A stretch of DNA of 64,000 nt, from the NCBI RefSeq assembly GCF_022045235.1, contig NW_027266286.1, positions 71,610,001-71,674,000 of the forward strand. Direction: 5' to 3'. Origin of the DNA: Haliotis cracherodii. Its lineage: Eukaryota. Positions 9,545 through 53,014 of this stretch are shown here, piece by piece. The notes under the pieces are model-generated. The model was given only the letters and a program-made list of their open reading frames with translations, was not told where the DNA came from and searched no databases. How positions within the stretch are numbered: position 1 is the stretch's first letter; each line of letters starts with the position of its first letter. The translations under genes and the position numbers were made by a program.

Positions 9545-9681
9545 GATTGCAATATGGTTGCCGATACCTGTTCTGTGCATATGTTGGCTCTATTAATAGA
9601 AACAGAGTACTGTTGTGCAATAGGCCAGATTCTTTGTATTGAGGTAACTGACATAATGCTCAAGCGTATACAATGACAAGG

Positions 9682-11460: not shown

Positions 11461-12856
11461 TAAACGTCATGCAAGGATGTCTCTGAGAGACGTTTGCAAA
11501 GTGGCATTAAACTAAACTCACTGTTTATATTTCCTTAACACTAACACGTTTAGCTTTTGTGAATATAGACCAACACAACACCGATTAGAGAAGCACTCTG
11601 AACATGCATTATCCCCTTTACATCATATAGTCAGATTAGTGCACCTTCCTTGTTTTCGATAAATTGAGACAACACTACAATACATCAAGATCTAACCTCT
11701 GTCTACCTGGACTAAGCATTCACTTAAATTTGCAATGTACATATTCGTATTCTTATTCTAATGTACAAGCTATCTCTTTTAGATTCTGATGCCCAAATTA
11801 GCTGTATATCCATATCAACACTGTCTCTCCTTTCCCACCAGAGACGTATATCAGGTAGCTGATACTACTGACAAGAGCCTCACATGAGCCTCACATGACA
11901 TGTGCCACGTATACGCAACGTTTCAGGAAGTGGAGCATTCCTGATTGGGCTATTGTTGGTAACCCCATATTAAGGCAGTGAGGTGAGGTGAGATGACACG
12001 CCGCGATAAACTATCATATAGCGACATCTGTGCCTGTGTGTTCCACCATGCACTGCACGGGGCAGGACAAGCCCACACGGGTTATTAATACCCTCTGTCA
12101 CCATTACAAGTTAACCTGAATGAATACAAAAACATACACATGATAAAGCGAGAGTTATTAATACAGTTTGGATTATTTATACACAGAGACCATATTCGAT
12201 TAAATGGTCATTTTATAGTATGTAACCATTGCTAGGGGAAGGTCTCCTGACACCTAGTAGTTGATCAGATGAATTTGCATGAATGTGCCTACCATTAAAA
12301 TGTTGATTGAATTTTCTTTAAATGATTTTCCAGAAACCTAGAGGACATGCTTATGAGCATTTACAATTTTGGTTAAAGGCATTATTCACCTTTTGTTTAG
12401 AACAAATTGTTGACCCATGTGGATTTCCAAAAAGTTAGTTGGACTAATTAATAAAGTAGCTATCGATTTGTTCTTCCAGTACTCAACAAATTAAACAAAA
12501 ATATAGCATCCATCAAGAATTTGGGACTTTTTGGAACTTTTATGAGTTTTAAATCTTAAACTGAAAAATACAGTTGTACAGACTTGCAGTTGTAATCAGC
12601 ATAGTTTCAATTTGCTAAATTCAAGTGTCTCCATTCACTGGGGCGTTCAATGTTTGGTCTCCAGAAGGAAATGCGATTTTATAGGCTATTTACAAGATTA
12701 ATCGAATCACATGAAAGACGAAAGAGTGAGCTATCTGCTCACATCAACTTAGTTAGCTGAAACGCCAAGGATCAAGTATTGGGGAACTATTCAGATCCGG
12801 GATGCCTGAGTTGTTACAATTTGAAAATGAAAAATAATTCATGTACAGATAGCTTT

Positions 12857-13584: not shown

Positions 13585-13616
13585 TTGTAGTATCTATGCT
13601 TCCTCCTTCAGCTGTA
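13581..13616 (-). pseudogene. Decayed exon 1 (TAEGGSIDTTK) of a lost paralog; duplicate at ~24001-24035
   Basis: GCTGAAGGAGGAAGCATAGAT is identical to copy 5 exon 1, but ATG is ACA and the GT donor is lost. Confidence 0.6.
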
Positions 13617-16300: not shown

Positions 16301-16333
16301 ATCCTAGAACTGATACTTTCCCTTTCGATTTCG
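16301..16333 (-). promoter_or_regulatory. ISRE/IRF element, copy 3 promoter
   Basis: actttccctttcgatttcg at 16315-16333. Confidence 0.65.
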
Positions 16334-19766: not shown

Positions 19767-20029
19767 CTGTAAAATGAATATGTAAATTATGTTTTAGTAT
19801 AGATATCATGGAAGCCATGTTAACATCGACGAAAAGTATTTCAAATTATTGTGACTCTCACAGATGAGAAATTATATCCCTTTCAATACCGACTGCATAT
19901 CTGTCCGCCGCATTATACAACAGAAATACAAAATATGTCAGACGAGGTAGTTTGAGGGATTTCCCCTTTTAGCACACAATTACTATGAAAATACTGTAAT
20001 AGTCATCTTGGACAGAAGTATATCCATAC

Positions 20030-20176: not shown

Positions 20177-20207
20177 TTCCTTGAATTTCTACTTTCATTT
20201 TCACTTC
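20177..20207 (-). promoter_or_regulatory. GAS plus ISRE-like composite, copy 4 promoter
   Basis: TTCCTTGAA at 20177-20185; actttcattttcacttc at 20191-20207. Confidence 0.65.
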
Positions 20208-22562
20208 TATTTTCTGTGAGGTATAAAAAGGCATTTCAGGTTATAACCAGTGTAATGCTAGATAGGGTATGATTCCCATGCAGGAAGTATCCGAGGTAGG
20301 ATCAAGACTACTTAGTGGTATGCAAGGAGTATATTATGGTATGTTAGGAGTCGGTTATTGACGTAGAAACCGTTGCATGCATGATGTGCACAAGTCAAAC
20401 CAGAGGTAACAAAAAGTCGCATATTTTCACTCATATTTTCACTAATTCACTCATTAAGTGATTGATCTGAACCAAACGCTGCTTTACTGTTTTATCCGTT
20501 TTATGTAAGGTATCAGCTATCTCTCCGCTCGGTATTCTTATCCGACTTCTTTCTATACAAAAGATGCTTTTGACACCATATATGATGGCTGCTTACGTTT
20601 ACGTGGTTCTAGCCAAAGCCACATATTCCTGAGAGCGTGGCTGATATCATATTCCATGTTCCCGAAGCGAATGTCTGGTTCCCTGGATGACCTGACAAAA
20701 TGTGTTCATGGCCTAAAAAGCACTTATCGACTCCTTCATTTGTCTCGAAGTCGTAATCGAACATATCAAGTCTCTAATACCTTGTACTACGACGCATGTT
20801 CTTGATTCAGACATGATTCGGTATTGAATAGGTGCAATTGTTACACATATATCAAATAGACACAATGCTCAAAACATTATTATTATTATATTTACTATTT
20901 ACATATTAGAATAAGAAATGCAGCAAAGAGGTGTTTGGTGATCCTGGCACGTCCGGGCTGGTTAGGCTCAACATCAGCTCAGGGCCCTTGCCCGTCTACA
21001 CGTTGCCCAGATAGCGAATGGGACTTCTCCTAGCAAGCGCTGCCTAGTCGAACCCACCCAAAACTTTTCGGAGAATGTGAAGACTCCCCAACACTGCAGC
21101 CTTCTGCACTACCCAGGTTGTCAGAAGAGCTGTATTCCTGGTAGCAAACTAGGGCACTCTGCCAATGTCAGTCAACAGATTGAGAGGTACCAAACCTAAG
21201 GCACAGAGAACAATGGGGAGTCTGACAACTTGGCACTTGGGATGCAAGCGTGATATTTCGTGATACATTACTGTCAAAAGGGACAAACATTTATCAAATA
21301 GGACAAGATTAGGTTTTTTGACCTGGATACGTCTGAGGCTGTGTACGGACCTATTCTAAAGAATTTTGTATTTATTATTTTCCATGACGCCCTCTACATA
21401 TTCCGGGTTGTACCATGGATGGACCTCTGTGTCAAAGCCACAAGCATGGCAAAGACGGTAATAAAATGATCGAGCCACTCCATCACGTTGCTTAAGATAC
21501 TGTGTTTGTGCCAAAGCTGGGCATCCACTGACAATGTTGTTGACAGTCTCATTGAATTCATTGCATATTCTACATTTGATATTTACATGTTGATGCCAAA
21601 TTACATGTTGACGGTTTCGAGTGGAAGTGACTGGTCTTGAGCAGGAAACAGAAAGCCTTCGGTTTTACTTTTGAGGCCAGTCGTCTCTATCCAAGCGAAG
21701 GACTCTGCAGGGTTGCTGATCTTCTCAACACACTGCATAACAACTCGAAGCAGTGGACCAGTGACACTGACATTTACTTCTTCCCACCCAAGATGAGAAC
21801 CAAATTTGTTTCAAATTCGATTTTCCATATGGCCGGCACAACAGCTGTAATGAAAACCTATTCATTGTTATTGTTCGTCTTCGACATGTGTAACGTTGGC
21901 CTCCTCCCATATTACCCTAACAAACTGTGATAAACGTCATGCAAGGATGTCTCTAAGAGACGTTTGCAAAGTGGCATTAAACTAAACTCACTGTTTATAT
22001 TTCCTTAACACTAACACGTTTAGCTTTTGTGAATATAGACCAACTTAACACCGATTAGAGAAGCACTCTGAGCATGCATTATCCCCTTTACATCATATAG
22101 TCAGATTAGTGCACCTTCCTTATTTCGATAATTTGAGACAATACTACAATACATNNNNNNNNNNNNNNNNNNNNNNNNNNNNNNNNNNNNNNNNNNNNNN
22201 NNNNNNNNNNNNNNNNNNNNNNNNNNNNNNNNNNNNNNNNNNNNNNNNNNNNNNNNNNNNNNNNNNNNNNNNNNNNNNNNNNNNNNACTAATGAAGATCT
22301 CATAGTGCTATCCAACTGAGATGCCGTGCCGCAGTTTAACACGAAGACCCCACTCATACACAGTATTCTGTCTCCGAGCCGAATAATACTTGGTTTAACC
22401 ACTTGATTCCGTGTGCCAGTCAGGGTACCGAACAGTACGATCTTTTAACGTCCTTTGGTAGACCCTCGACCTTGCTCTCTCCGGGCACACGCTCTATCCA
22501 CTGGACCATGGAGAAGTCGAATGAACACGGCGTAGTTGGAATAGATACAAATAAATACAAAG

Positions 22563-22690
22563 TGGGCTATATCCTGACTTTAAAAGATTTTGGTCGGGTC
22601 TTCATAACCTCTAATTTTCCTGGAAGGTTCTCTTAATCTATACTTAGAACGCGAAATCGAAAAGGGAAGTAACAGTTCAAGGATCAAGGA
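22563..22690 (+). promoter_or_regulatory. Inverted copy of the type A promoter module (GAS plus ISRE-like)
   Basis: Reverse complement of ~5775-5900; TTCCTGGAA at 22617-22625; CGAAATCGAAAAGGGAAGT at 22652-22670. Confidence 0.6.
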
Positions 22691-25419
22691 TGTGTGTGGC
22701 CTTGACAGTCTTGATAACTACAATTACTGGGGTATATATATCTAACCTCTGTCTACCTGGGCTTAACATTCACTTAAATTTGCAATGTACATATTCGTAT
22801 TCTTATTCTAATGTACAAGCTATCTCTTTTAGATTCTGATGCCCAAATTAGCTGTATATCCTTATCAACACTGTCTCTCCTTTCCCACCAGAGACGTATA
22901 TCAGGTAGCTGATACTACTGACAAGAGCCTCACATGAGCCTCACATGACATGTTCCACGTATACGCAACGTTTCAGGAAGTGGAGCATTCCTGATTGGGC
23001 TATTGTTGGTAACCCCATATTAAGGCAGTGAGGTGAGTTGAGATGACACGTCGCGATAAACTATCATATAGCGACATCTGTGCCTGTGTGTTCCACCATG
23101 CACTGCACGGGGCAGGACAAGCCCACACGGGTTATTAATACCCCATGTCACCATTACAAGTTAACCTGAATGAATACAAAAACATACACATGATAATGCG
23201 AGAGTTATTAATACAGTTTGGATTATTTATACACAGAGACCATATTCGATTAAATGGTCATTTCATAGTATGTAACCATTGCTAGGGGAAGGTCTCCAGA
23301 CACCTAGTAGTTGATCAGATGAATTTGCATGATTGTGCCTACCATTAAAATGTTGATTGAATTTTCTTTAAATGAAGGTGGCATTCCCGGAAACGTAGAG
23401 GACTTGCTTATGAGCATTGAAAATTTTGGTTAAAGGCATTATTCATCTTTTGTTTAGAACAAATTGTGGACCCATGTGGATTTCCCAAAAATTAGTTGGA
23501 CTAATTAATAAAGTAGCTAACGATTTGTTCTTCCAGTACTCAACAAATTAGACAAAAATATAGCATCCATCAAGAACTCGGGACTTTATTGGACCTTTTA
23601 TGAGTTCTTAATCTTAAACTGAAAAATACATTTTGTACAGACTTGCAGTTGTAATCAGCATAGTTCCAATTTGCTAAATTCAAGTGTCTCCATTCACTGG
23701 GGCGTTCAATGTTTGGTCTCCAGAAGGAAATGCGATTTTATAGGCTATTTACAAGATTAATCGAATCACATGAAAGACGAAAGAGTGAGCTATCTGCTCA
23801 CATCAACTCCACTTAGTTAGCTGTAACGCCAAGGATCAAGTATTGGCGAACTATTCAGATCCGGGATGCCTGAGTTGTTACAATTGAAAATGAAAAATAA
23901 TTCATGTACAGATAACTATGATGTACGTCAATAGATGCTGGCATCTTTTGTTTCCTTATAACTATGATGTACGTCAATAGATGCTGGCATCTTTTTTTTC
24001 CTTTTGCAGTATCTATGCTTCCTCCTTCAGCTGTACCTTTTACTGTCAATAAGGTCCGGGACAGAGCATACAAATCTTTAAAGATGTTTTGTCTTTTCGA
24101 TGCCACAAAATGGAATTCATACGCCAGACCATCTAAATACAACAACACCCAACCATATCTGATATAGACATAGTGATTTGCCAGTATCTTCTCTTCAGCC
24201 CATCAGTACAGTTGAATATTTCCATCAGTAAACACCGCTTTAGCATTCACAGTGTCTTTATTCTTTCTATAGCATGTAATGTAATGTATTTGTACATATA
24301 TTTTGTTCCAGCATATGGGTAATATGATAAAGAACGTAGAGGAAAGTAAGGGGTAAAAATTTATTTCAAATGCACGGCGCACATAAGCACAATGTAAATA
24401 TAAAAACAGAAACCACACACAATATGAAATACGAGTAGAAAGTAGTGGAATGCTTGATACTGATTGGTAAAAAGGAGGTATCCTTTTTCCTGCAGACACC
24501 TCATTTCCATGAAATCCCTTCTCACGGTGACTTCCAAGAAATGACTTGGTTAAGTCCAAGCACTGCACACACACAACAGGTTGCGAAAAACTAATTATAT
24601 TTCTACGGAGCGTTATTTTATCAATTCTTTTGAAAAACGATGCATTTTGTAACAATCTGGAGTTAGTCAAGAGTGAAGGTAAATAGTATTGAGCGTGCGC
24701 GAGTGTGTATGGTCTTACACCGCCTTTAGCAATATTCAAGCAATAAGACGCCTGGGAACACTAACAATGGGCTTTACACATGTGGGAATCGAACCCGGGC
24801 CTTCAGCATGACGCGTAAACGCTTTAAACACAAGGGTACCCCCATCTTCCCGAAAGTGAGAGAAAAATTATGGTAGGACTGGAAGAATTTATAGAGAAGA
24901 AACAAATTCCAGGCCCCCTTAGAAAATCAAATGGTCGGTGACTGATGACAAGAGCAATTTGTTGGCAACATGTGCAACGACCGTATGACTGCTAACCATG
25001 GTGCCGCAAGCACATATCAAAAATTAAAGGTGGTCATTGCCATTTACACAAAATATCAGCTGTGTGTTTCTCGTCACTTTTGAGAAGGTGAATGTTATTA
25101 TGTATTACATACCATATTTGGTATGTTATTGTATATTACAACACAGCAGCCTATCCGAAGCATAAGAAACATTTCCTCATGACATGAGCATCAATAACCG
25201 CTGCCGGGTGAAATAAGACATAATTAGAAATAACATTGCACCCAGCCGGAGTTCACATCCCTGTTGTATGGATGAGTTCGTTAAACATTACATTTAACCA
25301 AAATGAGATCAGCTTTATGTCTTGCATTTAATGGCAGGCTATTATCACTGATAATTTGGTGTATGTTCTGGCGTTCATGCACTTGTCTGATTATGAAGCA
25401 AAACACTCGATGGGTATTT

Positions 25420-26829: not shown

Positions 26830-27109
26830 CCTTGTAGACTGGTGAGGGCAAACGAATAAATTATATCAAAAGTTAAATTTGTCTTAAGGAATCTTAGGTT
26901 TTCTGTTTCTTTAATTTTATGCTGTTTGTTTTACACCCTTTATTTTGTCGACATCCCTAAAATATATCAGATAATGGAGAATAGTTTCCAAAGTTACTAT
27001 GCTTCACTGCGTCAACAGTATCATGAAACAAACTTCAAGGATTTTTAGTTCGGAAAAAGATAAGTAGTCGTTCGTCCCTAAAATGTGCTTTGTACCCATC
27101 TCTTATTCC

Positions 27110-30100
27110 CAAAGTTGGACAACATCTAACAAAACAAGGCATGTTAATAACAGCTGGACAGCATCTTACCAAACAAGGCATGTTAATAACAGCTGGACAA
27201 CATGTAACCAAGCAAGGCATGTTAATAATAGTTTGCAAACATCTAAGCAAGCAAGCCATGTTAATAAAAGTTTGCCAACATCAAACCAAACAAGGCATGT
27301 TGATGACAGCTGGACAACATCTAGTCAAACAAGGCATGTAAATAACAACTGGAGAGCATCTTACCAAACAAGGCATGTTAATAACAGCTGAACAACATCT
27401 AACAAAACAAGGCATGTTAATAACAGCTGGACAGCATCTTACCAAATAAGGCATGTTAATGACAGCTGGACAACATCTAACCAAACAAGGCATGTTAATG
27501 ACATCTGAACAACATCTAACCAACCAAGGCATGTTAATAACAGCTGGACAACATCTAGTCAAACAAGGCATGTTTACAACAGTTGGACAACAGCTAAGCA
27601 CACAAGGCATGTTAATAACAGTTGGACAACATCTAAGCAAGCAAGGCATGTTAATAACAGTTGGACAACATCTAACCAAACAAGGCATATTAATAACAGT
27701 TGGACAACATCTAACCAAACAAGGCATGTTAATAACAGTTGGACAACATCTAAGCAAGCAAGGCATGTTAACAACAGTTGGACAACATCTAAGCAAGCAA
27801 GGCATATTAATAACAGTTGGACAACATCTAACCAAACAAGGCATATTAATAACAGTTGGACAACATCTAAGCAAGCAAGGCATGTTAATAACAGTTGGAC
27901 AACATCTAACCAAACAAGGCATGTTAATAACAGTTGGACAACATCTAAGCAAGCAAGGCATGTTAATAACAGTTGGACAACATCTAACCAAACAAGGCAT
28001 ATTAATAACAGTTGGACAACATCTAGTCAAACAAGGCATGTTAATAACAGTTTGCTAACATGTAACCAAACAAGGCATGTATATTACAGTTGAACAACAT
28101 CTAACCAAACAAGGCATGTTACTGACAGTTGGACAATATCTAATCAAAAAAGGCATGTTTATAACAGCTGGACAATATCTAACCAAGCAAGGCATGTTAA
28201 TAACCGTTTGACAATATCTAAGGAAGCAAGGCATGTGAATAACAGCTGGACAACATCTAACCAAACAAGGCATGTTAACAACATTTGGACAACATCTAAC
28301 CAGACAAGGCATGTTAATGACAGTTGGACAACATCTAAGCAAGCAAGGCATGTTAATAACAGTTTGCTAACATGTAACCAAACAAGGCATGTTGATGACA
28401 GGTGGACAACATCTAAGCAAGCAAGGAATGTAAATAACAGTTTGCCAACATCTAGTCAAACAAGGCATGTTAATAACAGGTGGACAACATCTCACCAAAC
28501 AAGGCATCTTGATGACAGTTGGACAACATCTAACCAAACAAGGCATGTTAATAATAGCTGGACAACATCTAGTCAAACAAGGCATGTTTATAACAGCTGG
28601 ACAACATCTAACCAAACAAGACATGTTAATAACAGCTGGATAACACCTAGTCAAACAAGGGATGTTAATAACAGGTGGACAACATCTAACCAAACAAGGC
28701 ATGTGAATAACAGTTTGCCAACATCTAACCAAACAAGGCATGTGAATAACTGCTGGACAACATCTAGTCAAACAAGGCATGTTAATATCAGTTTGCCAAC
28801 ATCTAGGCAGGCAAGACATGTTAATAACAGTTTGCCAACATCAAAGCAAGCAAGGCATGTTAATAACAGCTGGACAATATCTAACCAAACAAGGCATGTC
28901 AATGACAGTTAGACAACATCTAACCCAACAAGGCATGTTAATAACAGTTGGACAATATATAACCAAACAAGGCATATTAATAACAGCTGGACAGCATCTA
29001 ACCAATCAAGGACATGTTGATGACAGTTTCCAACATCTAAGCAAGCAAGGCATGTTAATAACAGTTTGTTAACATCTAACCAAACAAGACATGTTGATGA
29101 CAGGTGGACGACATCTAACCAAGCAAGGAATGTTAAGAACAGTTTGCAAACATCTAAGCAAGCAAGGCATGTTAATAACAGCTGGACAACATCTAAGCAA
29201 GCAAGACATGTTAATAACAGCTGGATAACACCTAGTCAAACAAGGGATGTTAATAACAGGTGGACAACATCTAACCAAACAAGGCATGTTAATAACAGTT
29301 TGCCAACATCTAACCAAAACAAGGCATGATAATAACAGCTGGACAACATCTAGTCAAACAAGGCATGTTTATAACAGTTTGCCAACATCTAACCAAACAA
29401 GGCATGTTAATAACAGGTGGACAACATCTAACCAAACAAGGCATGTTAATAAAAGCTGGACAACATCTAACCAAACAAGGCATGTTAATAACAGCTGGAC
29501 AATATCTAACCAAACAAGGCATGTAAATAACAGCTGGACAACATCTAAGCAAGCAAGGCATAGTAATAACATTTGGAGAACATCTAACCAAACAAGGCAT
29601 GCTAATAACAGCTGGACAACATCTAAGCAAACAAGGCATGTTAATAACAGCTGGACAACATCTAAGCAAACAAGGCATGTTAATAACAGCTGGACAACAT
29701 CTAACCAAACAAGGCATGTTAATAACAGTTTGCCAACATCTAACCAAACAAGGCATGCTAATAACAGCTGGACAACATCTAACCAAACAAGGCATGCTAA
29801 TAACAGCTGGACAACATCTAAGCAAACAAGGCATGTTAATAACAGCTGGACAACATCTATCCAAACAAGGCATGTTAATAACAGTTGGACAACATCTAAG
29901 CAAGCAAGGCATGTTAATAACAGTTGGACAACATCTAACCAGACAAGGCATATTAATAACAGTTGGACAACATCCAGTCAAACAAGGCATGTTAATAACA
30001 GTTTGCTAACATTTAGCCAAACAAGGCATGTATATTACAGTTGGACAACATCTAATCAAAGAAGGCATGTTAATAACAGCTGGACAATATCTAACCAAAC

Positions 30101-30965
30101 AAGGCATGTTACTGACAGTTGGACAATATCTAATCAAAAAAAGGCATGTTAATAACAGCTGGACAATATCTAACCAAGCAAGGCATGTTAATAACCGTTT
30201 GACAATATCTAAGGAAGCAAGGCATGTGAATAACAGCTGGACAACATCTAACCAAACAAGGCATGTTAACAACATTTGGACAACATCTAACCAGACAAGG
30301 CATGTTAATGACAGTTGGACAACATCTAAGCAAGCAAGGCATGTTAATAACAGTTTGCTAACATGTAACCAAACAAGGCATGTTGATGACAGGTGGACAA
30401 CATCTAAGCAAGCAAGGAATGTAAATAACAGTTTGCCAACATCTAGTCAAACAAGGCATGTTAATAACAGGTGGACAACATCTCACCAAACAAGGCATCT
30501 TGATGACAGTTGGACAACATCTAACCAAACAAGGCATGGTAATAACAGCTGGACAACATCTAGTCAAACAAGGCATGTTAATAACATTTGGAGAACATCT
30601 AACCAAACAAGGCATGTTAATAACATTTGGAGAACATCTAACCAAACAAGGCATGTTAATAACAGCTGGACAACATCTAACCAAACAAGGCATGTTAATA
30701 ACAGTTGGACAACATCTAACCAAACAAGGCATGTTAATAACAGCTGGACAACATCTAACCAAACAAGGCATGTTAATAACAGTTTGCCAACATTTAGCCA
30801 AAGTAGGCATGTGTATTACAGTTGGACAACATCTGATCTAAGAGGGCAATGTTTATGACACTTTGACAACGTCAAACCAACCAAAGCATGTTTATTTTAG
30901 TTGGACAACATTTAACAAAGGAAAGTATTTGATGACAGTTTGACAACATCTAACCAACATCTGAC
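27110..30965. repeat. 39-bp satellite, ~100 units, in intron 1 of copy 5
   Basis: Consensus aacaaggcatgttaataacagctggacaacatctaacca. Confidence 0.97.
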
Positions 30966-31642: not shown

Positions 31643-31820
31643 TACGGATTCTCAACCTACTTCCTTTCCTAGTTCCTTCTTCATACGGTGACTGGACTAG
31701 TAATGTTTGTTATTCGTATACGTTGGCACTATTATTATCCCAATACACTCGTGTGCAAACATGTCTGTATTGCCGTATCCAACTGTTAACTGCTCGTCAA
31801 CAACCTTGACATGTACGTGG

Positions 31821-31888
31821 ATCCTAGAAATGTTACTTTCGCTTTCGATTTCGCATTCTAGGTATGGAGTAAAATAACCTTCCTGGAA
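31821..31888 (-). promoter_or_regulatory. ISRE (CGAAATCGAAAGCGAAAGT) and perfect GAS (TTCCTGGAA), copy 5 promoter
   Basis: ISRE at 31835-31853; GAS at 31880-31888. Confidence 0.72.
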
Positions 31889-33657
31889 TATTAGAAGTCA
31901 TCGTTACCGTACTTAAAGTCGGTTCATGACCCCCTAGTGTATTTGTTTAAACTATTGCATCGATTCATTCCTCTACACCTGTTTCATTGAGTGTGAGGAT
32001 CAGACCCAGTAATCCATGTTTTTTGTAAAAAGCCTTTTGAGGATTGAGTGCTTACAGAGCGTGGCTGATTGCATGCACATTCAGTGCTCATGCTATCAAC
32101 CACTGCTTCTACTAGAGATGGCAGATACATCTGATAAATTACTTTAATGTTTTTACGTTGGTGACCGTTAATGCATTTCATGTGAAGTCTATGATTTTTC
32201 ATAAACGTTTCCGGTTGCAGTATGAAGAAAATATTTGTCATTCAGTCTTATCAAGTGGTCAAACGTCTTTGTATATTAATTGTTTAAGAAAACTAACGTC
32301 ACTAATTTCCCATATTTATGAATTATTTATTACTAGTTCATAAACTGCCCTATTATATCTAGATAAACAGAAAACAGAATTAATATGAAGTAAGAGTTAG
32401 CTCACTTGGTTGATTCATATTTGAATAACCATCATATTCAGATTGACATGTGATGTTTGATGCAGAAATAACCTACGCGCTTCGATAACTTCATGGTTAA
32501 CCATTGATTCCTCAACCCTATTGAGCGAGTGAGTGAGTTGGGTTTAACGTCGCTTTAACAGTATTCCAGTTATATTACGGCGTCTCAACTTAATGTGGGA
32601 GGAAAGCCCAACGTGATGCAGGTCTCGGCATTTTCCACTCTGGTGAAACCCACAAGCTCGGGTATGATGCAGACAAAGTTTCTGGAATGTCCAAGGGACG
32701 AAACGAATTGCGAGGCCCCCAACACAACCCGAAAATGAGGACATGTGTCCATCCTAGATATCCCAGACAGAATATGGGTTGAATAGTGCTAAAAAGAGCT
32801 TAAAACCCTTTCCTTGGAATCAGCCTGCCCGACAAGAAAAATAGAAAGTAGATTTTCATTGTTTATTTTATTTACAAATTAAATAAAAAATAATTCCAAA
32901 CATAAAATATAATTTGAGAGTAATATAAAACTGTAAAACAAGACATATACATATATAGCTATATATACATCAAACCTATTCAGTTTACATGATGTGATAT
33001 AAATATCAATGTACACATATTGTATCTTTACCCATATATACATATTAGGCAATAAAGTAAATCAGGCGAGATAAAGCATAATCATAATACACCAGCGTGT
33101 GAATCCCAAATTCGATGAAATCAGAAAAGGAAGCTGATTATCCATTTAAAGTAAATAAAATAGACAAAACCCTTAACCAAGGATAATACCGACATATTGT
33201 CAATTTTTTCTAGCATCCTTATAACAGGATTGTGATGCTTTCCGAAATGGTGTCAATTTGTATCAATCTTCACTTCTGGAAAAAACTCAGTGTCATGTAT
33301 TGCCAAAATAAAATTGGTCGGCTCGTCCTTTCAGAGGAAGTCTTTGTTTTGCGACAGTGACCAAAGATAGATTCTATCTTCACCTCACTTCCAGTTGCAC
33401 TATCACACTGACTCTGTTTATATATATATAATTAAAAAAATATAAATAAAACGGTGACATTTTTCAATTGTATCCCTCTATTGATTTTCATGGCACTTTT
33501 AAATCTATGCACTTCAGAGTCGTTTTGTCTTGGGTACCGACCATAAGGGTTAAAGCAATATCCAGGAATGCTGATCACTCAGCTGAGTTGCCATAGTTGG
33601 AAATATTTCGGTCATATCACTTTCAAGTATGACCACCACCAATCCATTAAAACGTCA

Positions 33658-34295
33658 TCACCAGACATTGCATATGTCACAATTTTCAGACTTGCTTATT
33701 CCTCCTGGCGTGCTGTGACCTTGACCAATGGTGGGAGTAGAGGTGAGATGTCGATGGGACATGTCAATACTCTCTGTATACATGACCTCCACCTGCACTT
33801 CAGATTGGTCCAGTGTCATGTATGTGTCAGAAAATTCATCTTTCCACAAATAATTGTTGTTGTACGGATCGAGCTGGATGAGGTGTCGCCTGCAGAAACG
33901 GTCTGCATCTGATCCCGCATCTGTAAGTACCAAGGTCACGTAATGGATGTGTTTGCGTGAAGGCTTGCAGTAGAAATCAGCAAAGTACAGGTTTGCTGAA
34001 TCATCAAAGAGTTCATCAAGTGGTACTATCACTCTGGTGTTTCCGAACGGCGACATGTCTGGAAGATCACCCCTGTAGAGCGTCACCCCGAAGAAGAGAC
34101 CATTAAGTCTCCCGTTTATTGGACAACGCGGATCCCCTCCATCGTCCTTAACATACGGTACCATGATGTTACCGTGGTGTCTACGAATGTTTTTGAAGTA
34201 GGAGGATGGCTTGTTTCGGTAGAGATCAGACACCTGGTCATAGTCGTCTCCATCACAGTGTTCTTCGGCTTTCGGTAGCAGCTTTCGCAAATAGG
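33658..34295 (-). CDS. PHYHIPL: PHYHIP-like protein, copy 6, exon 2; ~221 aa with exon 1
   Basis: Acceptor ccttgcag|CCTAT at 34296-34297; intact domain ending CDICNVW*. Confidence 0.88.
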
Positions 34296-35579
34296 CTGCA
34301 AGGAGAAGACCAGTTTGTAACTTGCATGATGATTGACCCTTTATATATATACATGTATATATATTTTATTTTATTGTTTTCATCTGTTTGTGGAGAAAAC
34401 TATTAAAGACATTGTAAATGAAACTGAATGATATGGCAACGTTGGCTGAAGATGTGGTTACCTTCTTTTTTTTTATAAAATATTTCAATTCAGTGGACAT
34501 AATTGTAACATTGACACATGAGGTATATACGTGTAGCAATTCATGGTATCTGTATACTTGATCAGATATGTGTAAATATATATATTGGATTGACTGATGA
34601 AGAATATTAAGTAGATCTGTCAAACTTATTAATCTTCTATTTTCGTTGCGATAAACTTTTCTATTTTACATACATCTTTCAATATTTTTAAGAAAAATGG
34701 AAAGCATATGGAGTTTTCTTAACGCTTGACTGGGGAATGTATTTTTTGGCAAGAAGAATTATATGGTTGAAAAGATATGTAGAATGGTAATATGAATATC
34801 ATTTGCAAGTTTCTAGTTTAGGTACACTTCTAATCCTAACCATAATTCCTTTACAAAAGTGCATTCTATATACTGGTATAAGTTTTCAGAATCAGAGCTA
34901 CAAAAGGCTCATATATATATATATCTGTGTAGCCCTGTTAGATATGTTAGATATTCAATAGACATGTGAAAAAGTAACGCGTAAAAAATTATCTTTTTTA
35001 AACAAATAAATGTATTCTTATTACACTGGAAAAAAATCACACCCGATTTATTGTCTTAATTATGAGTACGCTAATCACACAAAACTAGAAATCGAACCAA
35101 AATTTTAAGTTAGACGAGTAAACGATTCATCCCCTCGGCTAACCCAGCACACTTTGGTTCAAGAAATGAGAAAATTGTGATAAAATCCCCGCTGGACTAC
35201 CGCCAAGCCTTTACCGTTATTCTTAACAATTACAGGTACTTGGTATATATCCAGACTCAGCCAGCCTGGACTAAACAATAACCCTCGAACTGAATTATTT
35301 ACTTTGACGAGCAAACGTTTCAGCCACTAGGCTAGCCAACTGAACTTTGGTTCGGGAATAAGAAACTGTTGATTAAAACCCGCTAGACTGTCGCAAAGCC
35401 TTGACCGTTTGTTGATAATTATAAGTATAAGGGTGTGCACATATAGCAAGAGTCTACAACGCAATTGGATAAATTTACTATGTATTTTTTCCTATAGATT
35501 GTGATGCACAAATTAGCTATATATCTCTGTCAACACTGTTTCTCCGACGTATATCAGGCAGCTTGAGCCTAACGACATG

Positions 35580-35606
35580 TTCCACGAATATGCAACGTTC
35601 CAGGAA
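35580..35606. promoter_or_regulatory. Tandem GAS pair in intron 1 of copy 6
   Basis: TTCCACGAA-N9-TTCCAGGAA; a third site, TTCCAGGAA, at 35870-35878. Confidence 0.6.
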
Positions 35607-35654
35607 ACGGAGCACTTTCTGACTAGGCCATTGTTGGCAACCCTATATTCAGGC

Positions 35655-35709
35655 AGTGAGGTGAGGTGAGGTGACACGTGAGGTGAGCTGAGGTGAGGTG
35701 AGGTGAGGC

Positions 35710-35775
<66 letters not shown>
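35655..35775. repeat. (GAGGT)n and (GA)n microsatellites
   Basis: Read directly from the sequence. Confidence 0.9.
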
Positions 35776-35777
<2 letters not shown>

Positions 35778-36138
35778 TGAATGTTCTGGAAGGACAAAGT
35801 AGAAAGCAGTATCACGTATTCCTGCTGCACTATGTCACGACCCACGTTATCAATGCGGGTATTTTTGTGTTCCAGGAAGTAATATTCTCCAAATTGGCAG
35901 TTGTTAGCCTTCGTTTTGACGCTTAGTTTTGTGTAAATTACTTTTTTCATATTCTTCAATTCCAATTTATACTGACTAAGAGGTTACAGCTGTTATCACA
36001 AATGAAACTCTTGGCTGTGTGTGTCAATTGTCAATTGATTGAAAGGCCTATACTGTTCATGAATAACGATGAGCAAATACAACCAACAAACGTGTTAGAA
36101 ATTGCGGAAATCAACCACATTGATTATTGTATAACTAC

Positions 36139-36166
36139 CTTTATCCTGGTGCCCTCCTCTGGCCAT
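36139..36166 (-). CDS. Exon 1 of copy 6 (MARGGHQDK+G)
   Basis: ATGGCCAGAGGAGGGCACCAGGATAAAG|GTAGTT; joins exon 2 in frame (G|CC = Ala). Confidence 0.72.
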
Positions 36167-36682
36167 GTTGCTGGAACAGTGAGTAGAAGCTACGTGTGAC
36201 CACCGTAACACGAGTTTATTGCTTGTTGTCTAACTTGCAAGTGTAACAAGAACTGTGTATGATTGTGAGTCAGATCTTCTTATGTGCGGGAAAACCGGTT
36301 CTATTAATAGATCCATGTAATGGTTATGTTATAGATTATTACCTCTTGAAAAGTTAAATGTCCGAGGGCAGCACTATCGTCGATCGTGGCATCAATGCTC
36401 CAACAGCGTCTCGACATCACAGTTGTTTAGATGAAGTTTTTATGGGAGGAAAGCCAGAAGTGATGCAGGTCTCAGACGTTTACCACTTTGATTAAATCCA
36501 CAAGCACGGGTATGGTGCTGACAAACCTAGAAACATAATCAGGGATACCGGGATTCGAACCGACCGACTTAAGTGAAATCCACTTACACGGTATAGGCAT
36601 TTTAGTAGGAGAAGGAAAAAAGTAGTTCCCATGGAATTGTGGGATCAATGACATTAGCACATGGTCTGTGACTGAGTTTAAA

Positions 36683-37111
36683 GGCCTTAACAAGCAATAT
36701 CCAAGCTATAACAAGTAGGCCTGGAATTTACTCTGGGCCTTAACAAGCAATATCCAAACTATAACAAGTAGGCCTGGAATTTACTCTGGGCGTTAACAAG
36801 CAATATCCAAGCTATAACAAGTAGGCCTGGAATTTACTCTGGGCCTTAACAAGCAATATCCAAGCTATAGCAAGGAGACTTGAAATTTATTCTGGGTCTT
36901 AACAAGCAATATCCAAGCTATAACAAGTAGGCCTGGAATTACTCTGGGCCTTAACAAGCAATATCCAAGCTATAACAAGTAGGCCTGGAATTTACTCTGG
37001 GCCTTAACAAGCAATATCCAAGCTATTACAAGTAGGCCTGGAATTTACTCTGGACCTGGCCTTAACAAGCAATATCCAAGCTATAACAAGTAGGCCTGGA
37101 ATTTACTCTGG
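36683..37111. repeat. 53-bp minisatellite, ~8 units
   Basis: Unit ggccttaacaagcaatatccaagctataacaagtaggcctggaatttactctg. Confidence 0.95.
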
Positions 37112-37498
37112 GAAAGACAAACCAGTGGTTGAAAAAATGACAAAACGATCCTCGACATGTGGGCAAGATGACACAAAATCAGTTGTTCTCCAGAATCTCC
37201 GTAGGTCATATGTATATCAAAAAGAACAAAGTCAAAAATAACATGACTGAGCTGACATATCTGCCACATTCCATAACTCTCCCAATACGTATAGCTGACA
37301 GTTCAAGTCTGACAAAGAATGCTCCTTACTTTTGCAAAGGTACAACTCAGGGGCCTGTCAAAATACCCATTCGCAACAAGTGACCCAGGGGTAAGAATAC
37401 CATGCAAAGCTCACTGCGTCTCAGTTGTACCGGTTCCTTGAGGGAGTCGCCATCTTTTCAAAACAGTTTTCATTTTGGAACGTGTTACCTTTTTTTGC

Positions 37499-38345
37499 CT
37501 ATGGCACATTCTTCTTCCTAATTCCGCCTGGCGTGGTATGACCTTGACCAAGGGCGCCTGTAAGGGAGAGAACCCTGTATGACATGGCCTCTGTATATAT
37601 GACCTCCAAGTGAACTCCAGATCGGTTCAGTGTTCTGTATGTACCAGTAAAGAATCTTTTTCTCAAAATTTAATACATATTCTCATACGGATTCATTTTG
37701 ATCAAGTTCTTCTAACAAGATTGGTCAGCTATGGGCCAGTCGCTGTCAAAACCTAGTTCATATAATGAATGTGTTTGCGTGACGGCTTGCAGTAGAAAAT
37801 CAGTAAATTATAGAAATGCTGATACATCAGAAACGTCCCTCAGTGATCTTGTCCCTCGGGTTTTCAGCAACCCATGCTTGCCGTTAAAGGCGACTATGCT
37901 TGTCGTAAGTGGTGATTAACGGGATCGGGTGGTCAGCCTCGCTGACTTAGTTGACAAATGTCATCGTATCCCAATTGCGTAGATCGATGCTCATGATGTC
38001 AATCACAGAATTATCTTGTCCAGATGCGATGATTTTAGACCGTCGACATATAGCTGAGTGCGGCGTTAAGCATCAAAATACACAAAAAACCATCATAAAG
38101 GCAGCCTGTCTGGTAGACCACTGTTACACAGGATCGCCCCAAACAGACCCATCAGCTTCCCATTGATTGGACATCGTGTGTCCTTCCACTCTCCACGTGT
38201 GAGGGTCCATGATGCTGCAGCGTCTTCTTCAAATATTTCTGAAGTAAGAGGATGTTTTTTTTGCGATACAGAGCATCTACCCATGTTCCTCCATTTCCTC
38301 CATCGCAGTATTCATCTACTTCATGTAGCAGCTGCCGTAGATATA
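37499..38345 (-). pseudogene. PHYHIP-like copy 7, decayed and interrupted by a SINE
   Basis: Acceptor at 38346-38347; remnants VYLRQLL..LYR..RCPINGKL.GLF..FYCKPSRKHIHY..GQGHTTPGGIRK with stops and frameshifts; SINE at ~37851-38085. Confidence 0.82.
37851..38085 (+). mobile_element. SINE family 1 inside pseudogene copy 7
   Basis: Homology to the other family 1 copies. Confidence 0.8.
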
Positions 38346-38879
38346 CTGCAATAATAATATTTATTTGAAAATTAGGATTTGTTACTTATTGTTTGTTTGT
38401 ATATTGTTTAACGGCATATTCAATAACATTCCAGCTATATGACGACGTCCTGACTGACTGGCGCATACACATCAGCAACGGTCCCCACCGTCGGGGTTAG
38501 ATGAAACAGTCACCAAGCCTGACCACCCGATCTCCTTTTGTCGCCTCACACAAACAGAACAAGTTTGCTGGGAACTACTGTATCCGGAAATCCACATGGT
38601 CGGTCTATTCTATTAGTGAGTGAGTGAGTGATTTTGGTTTAACGCCGCGTTTAACAGTATTCCAGTCCTATCACGGCGTGTCAGCTTAATGTAGGAGGAA
38701 AGCCCGAAGTGATGCAGGTTTCAGACGTTTACCAATTCACGAGCACGGGTATGGTGCTGACAAACCTAGAAACATAATCGGGGCGAACCGGGTTTCGAAC
38801 CCACAATTATAGGTTTCTGGCGTGCTCAAGAGACGCAACTCTGCACAGCGAAGTCAAGTCTTAAAAGACACATCAAAAT

Positions 38880-39044
38880 GGGGGCGGTCGGGTAGCCTAG
38901 TGGTTAAAGCGTTCGCTCGTCACGCCGAAGACCCGGGTTCGATTCCCGACATGGGTACAATGTGTGAAGCATCTGGTGTCCCCCGCCGTGATATTGCTAG
39001 AATATTGCTAAAAGCGGCGTAAAACTATACTCACTCACTCACTC
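38880..39044 (+). mobile_element. tRNA-derived SINE family 2
   Basis: GGTAGCCTAGTGGTTAAAGCG..GGTTCGATTCCC head, (ACTC)n tail; copies at ~14270-14425, 24690-24845, 43495-43640. Confidence 0.82.
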
Positions 39045-39317
39045 ATGATCAGTGACTTGGTTGACTGTTTAACATTGAGCCCAAGGCCATGAATCGTTGT
39101 TCATGTGCCTTGTTTACCTGGCCCATACTCGATCATATCTTGGCAACGTGATATGGCTGGTATATTTTTTTTAACTGCACAACTACTTGTACGTTGCTCA
39201 CACCCACTTGAGCCCACTGACGTATGAAAGTCACTCCAGTGTTATACTAGCTGTGTAGGGTGTGTGTAATTCAAGCCAAGCTGTCTACTCCAGCCTACAC
39301 TGGCTATTGATTACGGA

Positions 39318-39344
39318 TTCTACGAACCGCAAACGTTCCAGGAA
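39318..39344. promoter_or_regulatory. Tandem GAS pair in intron 1 of copy 7
   Basis: TTCTACGAA-N9-TTCCAGGAA, same spacing as in copy 6. Confidence 0.6.
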
Positions 39345-39924
39345 CTCTAAACTAGGTCATTGATATAACACTGACAATTACAACCCTGCAGAATATGACG
39401 TAACAAAATACAGTGGCATTGTTATCATACCAATGTAGCGTATGGCGCATTCTCACGCACACACTGGCTATTGATCTTGTCCAGTAAGCCTGATGTTTGT
39501 CTGCTGACATAAACAGCAACAACTCAGTTAGTGAGTGAGTATGGTTTTACGCCGCTTTTAGCAATATCACGGCGGGGGACACCAGGAATAGACTTCACAA
39601 ACAACTCACAGACAATGATCGGCCCGTTAGACGGGTACAACTAGTACTCCTTAAACCCGGTCATTTTAGACGTTGTTGACGGTGCACTCAGCAGTATTCC
39701 AGCATTGTACGGCGACCTGTACATAAACGAGTCTGCACCAGACAATCCAGTGACTGGTATTATCAGCAACATCCCACGGCGTCGGGGAGCGATAACACAC
39801 ACTCTGACAGGTCACCTGACCACCCAAGGGAGCCTGACCACCCGATCCAGCTAAGGCTGCTTGGGGAACAATTCAAACCACGTCAGTAAATGCAGTTTCC
39901 ATAACAGTAAATAGGAAGAAGTAC

Positions 39925-39949
39925 CTGTCCGAGTCCCCCCCACGGCCAT
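39925..39949 (-). pseudogene. Exon 1 of copy 7 (MAVGGTRT+G)
   Basis: ATGGCCGTGGGGGGGACTCGGACAG|GTAC, phase 1. Confidence 0.6.
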
Positions 39950-40380: not shown

Positions 40381-41279
40381 TGATACCAGTGCCGAGTCAT
40401 CCCGCTGTTGGCTGCAAAAAACAATGTGAAAACGTGATGCTGATTGTTCGTTTAATTACCATTTCTTTTGTGGTAAAACCGGTTATATTGATAGATCCAT
40501 TCAGTAACAGAGCCGAGTTGTATTATTCCCTATTCCAAAAAACATGTTTAAATATGCAGTGGGAATTCTGCCAAGTACAAACACCCATGCAATCTACTTG
40601 TTCGTCGTTAAACCGTCTCTGTTGTGAGCGTCGCCCGAGATCAGAAGCTCGGTAGTTCCATCCACTGGAAGTATCATACTAAAGGACGTTAACAGACAGT
40701 ACTTGCTTTTTACCCTATCTGGCGCTAGGTATTAAGGACTGGGCAGATCGGAGTCGGTAGTTTGATCCACTGGGCGTTCCTGAATAGCACATGATTCGAC
40801 ATTGAATACTAGAAGATGAAGTTGTTATATTTTTGTTAACACGCACATCAAATATACAGTATACTCAAAACATTGTAATGTGTTTGTTATTAGGCTAGTC
40901 GATAATTCATAACTACTGTTTCATAACGTCTGTCAAGGATTATCCTTATCTAATAGTTGTTATAGGACTTAACGTCACGTCCTATCTTCCTGACAAACGT
41001 AGTATGGTGGTCTTTGGTTGCTGGCGATTTATATCTTTATTTTGTGTTGTTGTAAAATAGTTTCCTCTGGTAAATGGTCTCAAACTAGTTTTAACAGACA
41101 AAAAATATGTTGCTAGTTATTGTTGACAGGTCTTAATACATTACTATTAATGTATAACATTTACTTGTCATGCCATGACTGAACTACTGCCAGGGTACTT
41201 TTGTGCCTTCATCCAAGCTTCAGATATTATGTGATAATCGAGTAGAGAGCGGGTGCAATGATAAGTTAAGACTGCATTA

Positions 41280-42545
41280 GATCTCCGATGCCTATTGTCA
41301 TACATCCCAATATGATTAAATCCAACATTCGGTTGTCCAAACGCTTTCCTTGGATACCTTGTATATGACCATTCATAATATACATGTAATACAACACAAT
41401 GCTAACTTTGTACCGCCACACATAAACATTGATTATTCAGTGTATATTATCAATGTTATAATGAAAGTATCATGAACCCACTAGCCGCCATAGGTTCGCT
41501 TTTTGTCCTATTAGAATGACGCCAAAAGTAGCTGCTGCATCAAATAGCACTGTTCTTGAAACAAGTGGTTCCATCACCTTAACTCGACTCGCCTACTGTC
41601 ACTTATATAAAGAAAGACAAATAATGTGCTAAGTTAGTGATGGAATGGCGATACAAACGTCGCTTCAGATACGAAGCTACGACGGCAAGGATGGTCCAAC
41701 CTATTTATCAGAGGACAAATATATAGGATACACTGGATAATCAAAAATGTGTCGGGAATTGATATAGAAGGAGACTGAACCATTGTGTGGGGCAATACTA
41801 TCCCATGTCCTATCGTATATGAAGAATATATACCCGAAGGCCCTTGACTTATTAAACCACTTGGAATAAGAATAAAGCCCACCATTTCGGATGCAAATAT
41901 TAACCTTACAATTATATCTCCCACTCAGACTGTGTATTCTTCTCTGTGGCAGTAAATAAAGCCACAGGTCGATCTGACGCTAACCAAAGTAAAGAAATCG
42001 GATACAAATCAGTTAATTTATAAGCTAGAACATACCGAGTAAAGAAGCACTTATAGAACTTACAAATCCATAGATACAGACGGATCCAAGAATGGTGGAG
42101 CATTAGATCCAAAACAATATCATCAAGAGTACCAGAAGACAGTTCAGTTTTTAAGCAGAATCAAACAGCTCTCAAATATATAAACACTCAATCTAAACAT
42201 AAAGAGTTCATGATATTTTCTTACTTCCTTTCCTGACTTCAGGTCATTAAGAATATGTCCCGTCAACATCAACGTCCACGTAAAAATACAGAATAATACA
42301 ATAACCTTGCTACTGGCAAATATGACATTGTCTTTTTCTTGGGTACGAAGCCATGTTGGAATCATTGGTCATCAACAAATCTAGGACAACATTTCTAATT
42401 TCATACTGCGATAATGTGATTAGGTGTAACATCAGAGATCTAATGTAAAAGAAGTGGGACACCCAAGTAGGTATTAACAAATTATATCAAATTTGTTAAC
42501 AACAAACAGGCTACAATTACTTGGGTTGTCAGTCTAGGTTTGAAG
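41280..42545 (+). mobile_element. Decayed RNase H-bearing LINE (I-group-like) fragment
   Basis: Broken frames PLGIRIKP..PQVDLTLTKVKKSDTN..DTDGSK; homologous to 54520-55260. Confidence 0.65.
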
Positions 42546-42559
42546 AAGATCTGTAGGAA

Positions 42560-43490
42560 TGCGTACTGCAGACGTTACATTTGTGTGTATTTTAGGTCAG
42601 TACAACGTTCGAGGAAGTGTTACAATGCAACTGGAGTAACCACTGATCGTCCGAGAAGTGGACGTCGACGGGTGACAACACCAGCTGAAGGTCGCTATAT
42701 TGTGACGTCACATTTACGCAATCGTTTTCTACCAGCAACAGTTACTGCCTAGACCACTCAAGGAACTCATAACAACAGAACCTGTGCTCAAATTGTTCGC
42801 ATTCGGCTACGACGGCAGGGTCTGAGAGCCAGGAGGCCATACGTTGGGTCAGTTCGTCAACGTCAACGTTGAGCGTGAGCTCGTGCATATCTGCGTTGGA
42901 CTCGGCGTACCTGACAGGGTGTGTTCTTTAGTTATAAATCCCGTTTTTCACTCTCCAGAGGTGACGGTCGACATCGGAGTTACAGACGGATGAGTGAACG
43001 TTGTGTTGACGCTTGTGCTGGATCTGTAATGGTTTGGGCATCACACGGGACTTCCAGCAGGCTAACCACGTGGATGTCATGCTTTTGCCAACCAAAAGTC
43101 AGGACATGAATCCAATTTAACATTTGAGGGAGTCTTTGACAGACGTGTAAGACAACGTCAGAATCGGCATCAGAACATCCGGGAACTTGAAACTGCCTTG
43201 TTTGCGGAATTTTAATAACATTCCACAACAAGAAATTTAGACATTAGTGACGTTAATGAGACGCCGATACAGAGTCTGATTGATGCAGACGGTGGCCACA
43301 CACGGTTCTGACTTTCCACTTTAACGTCAGCCACATCGTTCCACGGATGTTTCAGTGACTGATTTCTGTTAATATCTACTCACAAAGCAGTGCATGCTAT
43401 GGACTATTATATCATAGTTTACATCACCATGACAATGAAATATAATTTTGATTTTAAAAAGTCCGACGTTTCTTTTTTGTTCAGCATAGT
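42560..43490 (+). mobile_element. Decayed Tc1/mariner transposon
   Basis: TGVTTDRPRSGRRRVTT..LRNRFLPAT; F.Y.SRF..GDGR; GSVMVW; GGHT. Confidence 0.8.
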
Positions 43491-50880: not shown

Positions 50881-53014
50881 TACTAAACCAAATTAAAAAC
50901 TTCACAATCCTAAAATTTTAACATTTTGACCAGTTATCATTGTTGGCCCTTATTGTGTATTTAAACAGTAATGGCCACGTATTGTCTTCAGATAACACCC
51001 GTTTTTGTGCAGGTGAATCGATCAAAATCATGTGCACAGCACAAAAGTGGCAAAAGTGGTTTTTCACTTGCAACTGGTCACGTAGCCATAATACCGCACG
51101 TGTTTTCAGCCATACCTGCTAGCAGTCATTAACAAAAAAAAGAAAAACACAAGAAAACAAAAGTCTTTACGGCCATTTGTCATGCCACGCCTTTCAAATG
51201 TGCAACGTGAACGTGCCATCGGCATGTTGCAAACGGGAACGTCCGTAGCTGAAGTCGCAAGGACGATGGGTTGTAGTCGACGGACTGTTTATGATTTACA
51301 GACGCGTCTACAGCAAACGGGTACCACCGCTGATCGCCCTCGGCCAGGTCGACCACGTGTGACGTCACATGCAGAGGATCGTCAGATTGTCTTACGTCAA
51401 CTCCGTAACCGATTTTTGACGGCTACATCAACCAGAAATGAACTGTTTAGGGGTAGACTGAGTGCGCAAACTGTTCGAAACCGTCTGAGAACTGCTCACC
51501 TTCAAGCACGACGGCCATACTGCGGGCCGATTCTGACTCCATTGCACAGACGTCAACGTCAATTGTGGGCACAGTGGCACTTATGATGGATTCAGAGATA
51601 TTGGAATCAAGTCGTATTCAGTGATGAATCCCAATTTAAAGGGGAAGTGTACACGCAAAAATCACTTTCTTTCTTTTTCTAAACAAAACGCAATTTTAGA
51701 ATTAGTTAGTATCTGTGTTTGAAAATATACACTCATTTTTTTTCACAGTGAAAGTAGGAAGCTCACAATAGTGTGAAAGTGATATGCCGTTATGAGGCCT
51801 TCGTTTTACGAGCGAAAAAGGCCTGAGTTATCCCCCTTAGATTATGACGTAATTGGTGCCAATTCAACTGGGTCCCTGTCTATTCTCAACGCAAAAGATA
51901 TCAAGGACCAGTTTGCGGTAAAACAACATGGTCTACGACACACTCCGGCGCAGTGGTGTCTCAGCATAACACAATTCTGGCTGGCATCTGAGATGCTAGA
52001 ATCACAAAACTGTACCTACCCCACGTGAAGCGGCTCTAACAAAGCATGATGACGTCATAATGTTTATCAATTGGCACCAATGACGTCATATTGCAAGGGG
52101 CATAAGCCATGGTGTTTTTGTTATGGAAATAGAACACTTGGTAAATGTGAAAAATATGAATCGTTTTAGTGCAAAAAATATGTTTATTAAATATGATGTT
52201 TTTATATTTTTGTCTATGACACTTCTATGTTAACACTTTTAATGTGGAAAAAGTACAAGAAAAAATGGTTCATTTCCGTGTGAACTTGCCCTTTAATCAT
52301 CAATTTGCTGATGATAGGGCGAGGGTGTGGAGGCGCCGTCATGAACGTTACGCCCAGTGTTGTGTACAGGAAGTTGACAGATTTTGAGGCGGAAGTGTCA
52401 TGATGTGGGGTGCTTTCTGTGGCAATGCACGTTCCAGGCTTCTTGTCATCCGTGGCAACCTCAACGCTACTGCTTACCGCGACCAGGTACTGGCACCAGA
52501 ACTTCTGCCTTTTATAGCAGCACATGGACCCGGTTTGATCTTCCAACACGACAATGCCAAACCACACACAGCAATTGTGACAAGGAATTTCCTTCAGAAT
52601 GCGGGAGTCAACGTCATGGACTGGCCGTCAAGGTCTCCCGACCTCAATCCCATCGAACACGTCTGTTATGCACTTGGCAGAAGTCTGCGCACTGTCCAGA
52701 ACCAACCACAGAATTTGCAAGATCTTGGCACCATTTTGCAGCAGCAATGGTGTCGTCTTCCCAAAAATGTGTTCACAAGCATCACAAGGTCCATGCGGAG
52801 GCGTTGTGTGGCACGCTACTAAACTTGTGATTTAAACTGTTGATGTTATTACCGAATACCGTAGGTGCTTGGAACAAATTATGGTTACCACCGTTAATTT
52901 AAATCCTTCTTTGGACATTAATGATTATAAAATACCTTCTCTGATACATTTGTCCGTTGTATATCATATATGGGATTACTTTTAAAAATGTGAAGTTTTT
53001 AATTGGACTCAGTA
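50881..53014 (+). mobile_element. Tc1/mariner DNA transposon, near full length
   Basis: TIRs tact..caattaaaaacttcaca; transposase 51182-52822 with HTH, FSDES, QHDNA and SPDLNPIEH, carrying stops. Confidence 0.88.
51640..52292. mobile_element. Non-autonomous TIR element with TTAA TSD (Kolobok/piggyBac-type MITE)
   Basis: TTAA at 51636-51639 and 52293-52296; TIRs aggggaagtgtacacg / cgtgtgaacttgccct. Confidence 0.8.

Follow-up and report, generated by a model that had tools for sequence, protein, structure and literature searches.

The DNA considered here is a window of 64,000 nucleotides from the abalone Haliotis cracherodii (contig NW_027266286.1, positions 71,610,001 to 71,674,000), in which tblastn finds eight genes or gene remnants of the PHYHIP_C (PF19281) family arranged in tandem on the minus strand. 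Two of these, referred to as copies 6 and 7, carry in intron 1 a pair of gamma-activated sites (GAS, consensus TTCN3GAA) separated by a 9-bp gap (N9). Between the two copies the pair is more conserved than its flanks, a difference of modest strength in an element ascertained through its motif. The reading favoured here, to which we give about an even chance, is that the two pairs go back to a single STAT response element, placed in the intron and accommodating two dimers; that they share an origin, were retained by selection, are bound by STAT and respond to immune induction are all points that we infer from the sequence. A first-pass annotation had proposed a conserved GAS pair and a possible STAT tetramer enhancer. 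A conserved STAT-type intronic element remains reasonable in the light of the copy 6/7 footprint and the GAS-like and interferon-stimulated response element (ISRE)-like motifs of sister copies, and the tetramer part of the proposal is weakened by the 9-bp gap, which corresponds to a trough in mouse STAT5 data (PMC4990345).

The paired sites in copies 6 and 7

The two pairs and a further site in the same intron of copy 6 are as follows (no strand assigned).

35580..35606, copy 6 GAS-N9-GAS pair in intron 1, TTCCACGAA-N9-TTCCAGGAA, at +560/+578 from the ATG
39318..39344, copy 7 GAS-N9-GAS pair in intron 1, TTCTACGAA-N9-TTCCAGGAA, at +605/+623 from the ATG
35870..35878, third perfect TTCCNGGAA site, in copy 6 intron 1, at +288

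A motif scan confirmed both pairs, all four sites of which agree with the GAS consensus, and found no other exact TTCN3GAA-N9-TTCN3GAA match in the window, where base composition predicts 0.006 N9 pairs and 0.096 pairs for any gap of 5–20. Combining 24 half-sites with 16 gaps gives 384 patterns of paired palindromes, of which just four matched anywhere, two of them with the GAS half-site. The placement of the pairs in intron 1, also put forward earlier, is borne out for copy 6 by the annotated protein P0001 and for copy 7 by sequence pattern. Orientation, gap and distance to exon 1 are alike in both, with the strong site on the exon 1 side.

The introns of copies 6 and 7 cannot be aligned except at repeat fragments and at a short island containing the pair, in agreement with the earlier remark that the surrounding intron sequence differs. 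Over 27 bases, no other match between the intron stretches compared is as good as the pair (21/27), and one of 100 shuffles attains a score of 21. All 12 TTC/GAA bases are kept between the pairs and the six mismatches all fall elsewhere (P = 0.017); in the weak site the variation lies between an unchanged TTC and an unchanged GAA. Conservation between the copies also extends to four spacer bases beside the strong site and to a nearby 12-mer with 11 positions the same. Within the window the 60-bp pair island is matched only in copy 6, copy 7 and two gene-less relics, and it may be part of a dispersed genome repeat. A second island, upstream of the genes, is likewise common to the two copies (87.5% over 32 bp, E 6e-5).

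36277..36352, copy 6 promoter island, shared with copy 7, with the palindrome AACCGGTT at 36293-36300
40463..40539, the corresponding promoter island of copy 7, with AACCGGTT at 40477-40484

The only two copies of this 8-mer in the window are those in the promoter islands, and we take the palindrome to be Grainyhead-like. Short islands that survive in unalignable DNA would be the pattern of selected binding sites, and the pair looks like a regulatory footprint inherited once rather than two independent events.

The single strong site was also counted. Seven TTCCNGGAA sites lie at 22617, 23384, 31880, 35598, 35870, 39336 and 46577, as had been listed against a rough expectation of one, and models of base composition and Markov orders 1–4 predict 0.66–1.17. 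The spacer is specific, since TTCC-N-GGAA occurs seven times with a gap of 1 and every other gap from 0 to 8 gives 0–2. Not all of the sites arose separately: the promoter sites 22617 and 31880 are homologues of each other, and 35598 and 39336 probably are too. This shared homology therefore leaves about five origins, for which the Poisson P is ~0.004 at a mean of 1. The generic TTCN3GAA motif is mildly raised over shuffled sequence (30 vs. 19.6 ± 4.4; 4 of 100 shuffles equal it). The enrichment of TTCCNGGAA is real and modest.

Motifs of the same type lie near the first exons of the other copies. Copies 1, 3 and 5 have a triple GAAA-NN repeat of ISRE type 160–210 bp 5' of the ATG, and in copies 2 and 4 an ISRE-like motif adjoins a GAS-like site; the ISRE label on these GAAA-NN repeats follows established usage.

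5797-5812, 16317-16332, 31837-31852, 9698-9707 and 20193-20202, ISRE-like GAAA-NN-GAAA motifs of copies 1–5, 140–210 bp upstream of the ATG
31820..31901, minus strand, copy 5 promoter module, GAS (31880) and triple ISRE-like repeat (31837-31852)
22529..22746, plus strand, orphan promoter module of the copy 1/3/5 type in inverted orientation, with its GAS (22617) intact and an ISRE-like motif at 22653-22662

Clustering was measured in a non-redundant window that excluded 4540-14664 (the first of the duplicated units) as well as satellites and masked bases. Within −600 to +700 of the seven exon-1 starts, a range holding 17.7% of the bases, lie 13 of the 24 TTCN3GAA sites, and 9 of 20 when the two pairs are left out (P = 0.004). 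Four of the five long ISRE-like motifs are at most 300 bp from an exon-1 start. An interferon-like pathway with IRF and JAK/STAT components has been described in oysters (PMC8218723, PMC11103948).

If the pairs are a STAT response element, each would act in the manner of a paired GAS enhancer: two STAT dimers would bind it independently or with weak cooperation, and binding would raise transcription after cytokine or antiviral signalling. The survival of the pair in copy 7, a pseudogene, is compatible with chance (the 12 bases survive 10–21% neutral decay with P ~0.06–0.28) or with its having been taken over by copy 6, which the copy 7 pair could then serve; the ATG of copy 6 lies 3.15 kb off in the direction of transcription.

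Neutral survival and other binders as possible alternatives

Several results weigh against the preferred reading. The pair island was chosen through its motif match, and taken alone it reaches a BLAST E of ~0.1. TTCC.GGAA is the commonest (7) of 96 palindromes of the same composition, and the runners-up occur 6, 5, 5 and 5 times. The intact copy 1 has lost its promoter GAS, which copy 5 and the orphan fragment retain, and the pseudogene copy 7 has kept an intact pair; the pair in a dead copy and the loss in an intact one therefore show motif state and gene state to be uncoupled. The −600 to +700 range was picked post hoc, the TTCN3GAA clustering is weaker with other widths, P rising to 0.04 for ±500 and to 0.14 for ±300, and for ±1500 the enrichment extends to a control motif. 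Distant PHYHIP_C loci were also searched (80 fetched; 59 once near-duplicates were dropped, 57 of which had 100 bp or more of upstream sequence, 91.6 kb in total). No N9 pair occurs in these 91.6 kb upstream of the 57 loci, where generic GAS number 35 vs. 29.3 in shuffles and strict GAS 4 vs. 1.3. An ISRE excess at the same loci (20 vs. 6.8 shuffled) was rejected, since spacer controls give 13–18. In the accessible part of an oyster poly(I:C) supplement (PMC7064767) no PHYHIP entry occurs, the one match being a different gene. The seven files of the PMC6353905 supplement hold no PHYHIP match.

The relics bear on the same question. Two blocks in the gene-less region resemble the intron of copy 6.

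22825..23051, relic B block, a homologue of copy 6 intron 1 with 13.2% divergence, remains of the pair at 22953-22979
11780..12000, relic A block, duplicate of relic B, pair remnant at ~11903-11929

The first-pass annotation had held that the pair decayed in both relics after loss of selection. The sites have indeed changed, with 2 of 12 key bases off consensus in relic B and 3 of 12 in relic A, and the interpretation fails. The relics are just 3.1% apart, so that their shared changes are one event. The relic block differs from copy 6 in 25 of 189 columns, and two changes in 12 key bases fit this flank divergence (P = 0.48, or P = 0.19 with all changes placed on the relic branch); the comparison of copy 6 with the relic thus gives no excess conservation of the pair over its flanks. 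Two of the seven perfect TTCCNGGAA sites (22617, 23384) lie inside the gene-less relic region.

The relic region has further features of its own. Its exon 1 (13570-13630, 23990-24050) resembles exon 1 of copy 5, without the ATG and the donor, and the block downstream resembles the intron of copy 6; the relic is therefore a chimera. The possibility that the relic exon is the first exon of copies 2 and 4 was ruled out, as both own an exon 1 (P0015). A second GAS pair, at 14086-14121 and 24505-24540, has an 18-bp gap (centre distance 27) and lies ~480–510 bp upstream of relic exon 1; a site with two mismatches follows 9 bp further on. The duplicate unit lacks the inverted orphan promoter fragment, as seen at its 11685/11690 junction.

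The pairs may instead be a neutral leftover, dating from a duplication or from gene conversion over a short tract, which seems conserved only through its discovery by motif. We hold this to be unlikely and the best placed of the alternatives. It would account for the E of the island, for relic sites that decay at the rate of their flanks, for the pair kept by a pseudogene, for control palindromes with as many as five or six copies and for GAS turnover in an intact gene. It sits less well with mismatches that spare the key bases, with copies 6 and 7 whose exons are just 66% identical and whose remaining introns are unalignable, with the second island common to their promoters, and with the other GAS-like and ISRE-like motifs clustered by exon 1.

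A true STAT tetramer enhancer, in which two dimers joined by their N-domains bind cooperatively, we regard as quite improbable. The pair offers tandem consensus sites with an equal gap in both copies, and a gap of 9 is inside the 2–17 bp quoted for tandem STAT5 sites (PMC13234138). STAT1 tetramers form on a probe with a 10-bp gap (PMC4284922). However, a 9-bp gap is equal to 18 bp from centre to centre, and this distance is a named trough in both the distribution and the model of mouse STAT5 tetramer sites, where it is rare and not absent; the gap peaks there are at 11–12, with secondary ones at 6–7 and 16–17 (PMC4990345). The modelled feasibility for two N-domains at 10.5 bp per turn is 0.10 at distance 18 vs. 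109–110 at 20–21, and at 10.0 bp per turn 4.9 at 18 vs. 88 at 20 (PMC4990345). Gaps of 11–13 and 16 have been reported as preferred for STAT5 tetramers (PMC5673064). A gap of 9 is thus outside the favoured helical phase (6–7, 11–13, 16–17), for which mouse STAT5A is the only reference, and the linkers of abalone STAT may differ. The literature searched yielded no spacing data for mollusc STAT tetramers.

A little more improbable still is another or composite factor, such as a BCL6-like zinc-finger or ETS protein (GGAA core) at the strong site with a partner on the spacer bases and the 12-mer, which would explain conservation beyond the GAS itself and is opposed by a weak site that keeps exactly TTC and GAA around a varying middle, like a STAT palindrome, and by IRF-type motifs in sister promoters that suit a STAT/IRF programme. 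BCL6 and ETS motifs overlap GAS.

The PHYHIP_C cluster and its protein fold

The hidden Markov model cut-off for PHYHIP_C was passed by all four copies scanned (113–134 bits vs. 27), and the domain was matched by 25 of 25 alignment members. A protein labelled Haliotis cracherodii matches copy 6 exon 2 with 100% identity and has a cluster mate in H. rufescens; annotated clusters of PHYHIP_C proteins exist in H. cracherodii, H. rufescens, H. rubra and H. asinina. The copy 6 orthologs include XP_046365373.2 of H. rufescens and XP_067674808.1 of H. asinina, the latter species with 76% identity at the protein level. Copies 1–2 and 3–4 are a recent duplication of ~10.5 kb. The gene models that place the pairs are as follows, all on the minus strand.

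36139..36166, copy 6 coding exon 1, MARGGHQDK, phase-1 GT donor, N-terminus of database protein P0001
34296-36138, copy 6 intron 1, exon 1 fixed by the start of P0001 and exon 2 from 34295
33658..34295, copy 6 exon 2, intact PHYHIP_C (PF19281) domain
39925..39949, copy 7 inferred exon 1, by sequence pattern, resembling copy 6 exon 1
38346-39924, copy 7 inferred intron 1, from sequence
37490..38345, copy 7 exon 2, pseudogene with stops, frameshifts and a repeat resembling a short interspersed nuclear element (SINE) at 37859-38091

Since P0001 starts with MARGGHQDK, exon 1 of copy 6 is 36139-36166 and intron 1 is 34296-36138. In a leave-one-out comparison, 21% of otherwise invariant exon columns are changed in copy 7 vs. 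9% in copy 6, and the SINE-like repeat in the copy 7 exon has a terminal branch of 0.10. The exon 2 tree yields no resolved sister pairing of copies 6 and 7 (support 0.53–0.68). Exon 2 of copy 3 has an internal deletion with a frameshift at 15097.

Other sequences in the window were recorded as well. The ISRE-like repeats are better preserved than the neighbouring GAS. An NF-kB-like decamer in intron 1 of copy 4 (19956-19965) was not found in the duplicate copy 2. Among the distant loci, one (L012) has a fused GAS-plus-ISRE-like motif ~2.4–2.5 kb upstream of the match and another (L057) a GAS pair with a 6-bp gap directly upstream of it. Intron 1 of copy 5 contains a 39-bp satellite of ~100 units (26976-30860); a 46-bp array lies at 12849-13584 and a 53-bp array at 36683-37112. 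At 58569-61286, terminal inverted repeats of 480 bp flank a transposase fragment that is Tc1/mariner-like by the look of its open reading frame, and fragments similar to this element occur at 42471-43300 and 51092-52830.

The AlphaFold model of the copy 6 protein (P0001) has a pLDDT of 89.6. When it was compared with 48,161 chains, 35 reached Z >= 2, and by their titles all 35 have the ADP-ribosyltransferase (ART) fold (Tpt1, DarT, PARPs and toxins). The matches are weak, with Z of 2.0–3.6 (best Z 3.6, root-mean-square deviation 3.5, 90 aligned), and the best 50 matches listed in a second structure comparison likewise have the ART fold. Foldseek gave nothing at E <= 0.001, and its lists were mixed. 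A language-model search returned OspC, PARP, DarT and Arr clusters at 0.84–0.88, at the level of a lead. A sequence profile found no solved relative and no ART Pfam family; residues Y42-R43, S91, E179 and C215/C218 are conserved. Overall, the domain appears to resemble ART folds weakly yet consistently, which is a lead and not a result. Among the open-access papers listed as naming PHYHIP, none deals with an ART fold by its title or the start of its abstract.

PARPs induced by interferon are known. It is conceivable, and in our view rather unlikely, that the whole cluster is an unrecognised abalone family of STAT/IRF-inducible effectors of ART fold, a mollusc counterpart of those PARPs, with ISRE-plus-GAS promoters in copies 1–5 and the intronic GAS pair in copies 6–7, the copy 7 pair being kept as an upstream enhancer of copy 6 and PHYHIP_C, including the human proteins, being a divergent ART fold. 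If the ART-like fold is true, STAT/IRF control of the cluster would be biologically sensible by that analogy, and the function of PHYHIP proteins would become directly testable. The element itself, if true, would be of practical value as a short STAT reporter native to abalone, animals in which viral disease is a concern, and one open to testing; it would also mark a functionally uncharacterised gene family as a candidate target of the interferon-like pathway in molluscs.

Comparison with known systems

The vertebrate form of PHYHIP has an N-terminal FN3 domain. Within the PHYHIP_C family, the abalone cluster is distinguished by short two-exon, single-domain genes in an array of fast birth and death.

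Tandem intronic GAS are also found at STAT5 tetramer sites, including those in the promoter and the first intron of Il2ra and in a Bcl2 intron (PMC5673064, PMC4990345), which favour gaps of 11–13 and 16 (also 6–7), whereas the abalone gap of 9 is in the trough. The STAT1 2xGAS probe, too, has two TTCN3GAA sites and is bound by dimers and tetramers; it differs in being a synthetic probe with a 10-bp gap used with human STAT1 (PMC4284922).

In Drosophila, Stat92E uses TTC(3n)GAA, and the nearest precedent for the abalone pair is a conserved element with two sites in intron 1 of the dome gene (PMC2556238). Like the abalone pair, the dome-MESO/SLF4 element is an invertebrate first-intron element of ~40 bp with two STAT palindromes in a conserved island (PMC2556238). 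In D. melanogaster the dome sites are of the 4n type; they are conserved between species and mutational tests have been made on them (PMC2556238), whereas those of abalone are 3n, are conserved between paralogs and are known from sequence. A fragment of the dome intron with three 3n sites drove no mesodermal expression (PMC2556238), and the consensus alone is therefore not enough. STAT sites set in pairs within first introns are already known, and the abalone pair would be one more example of that design.

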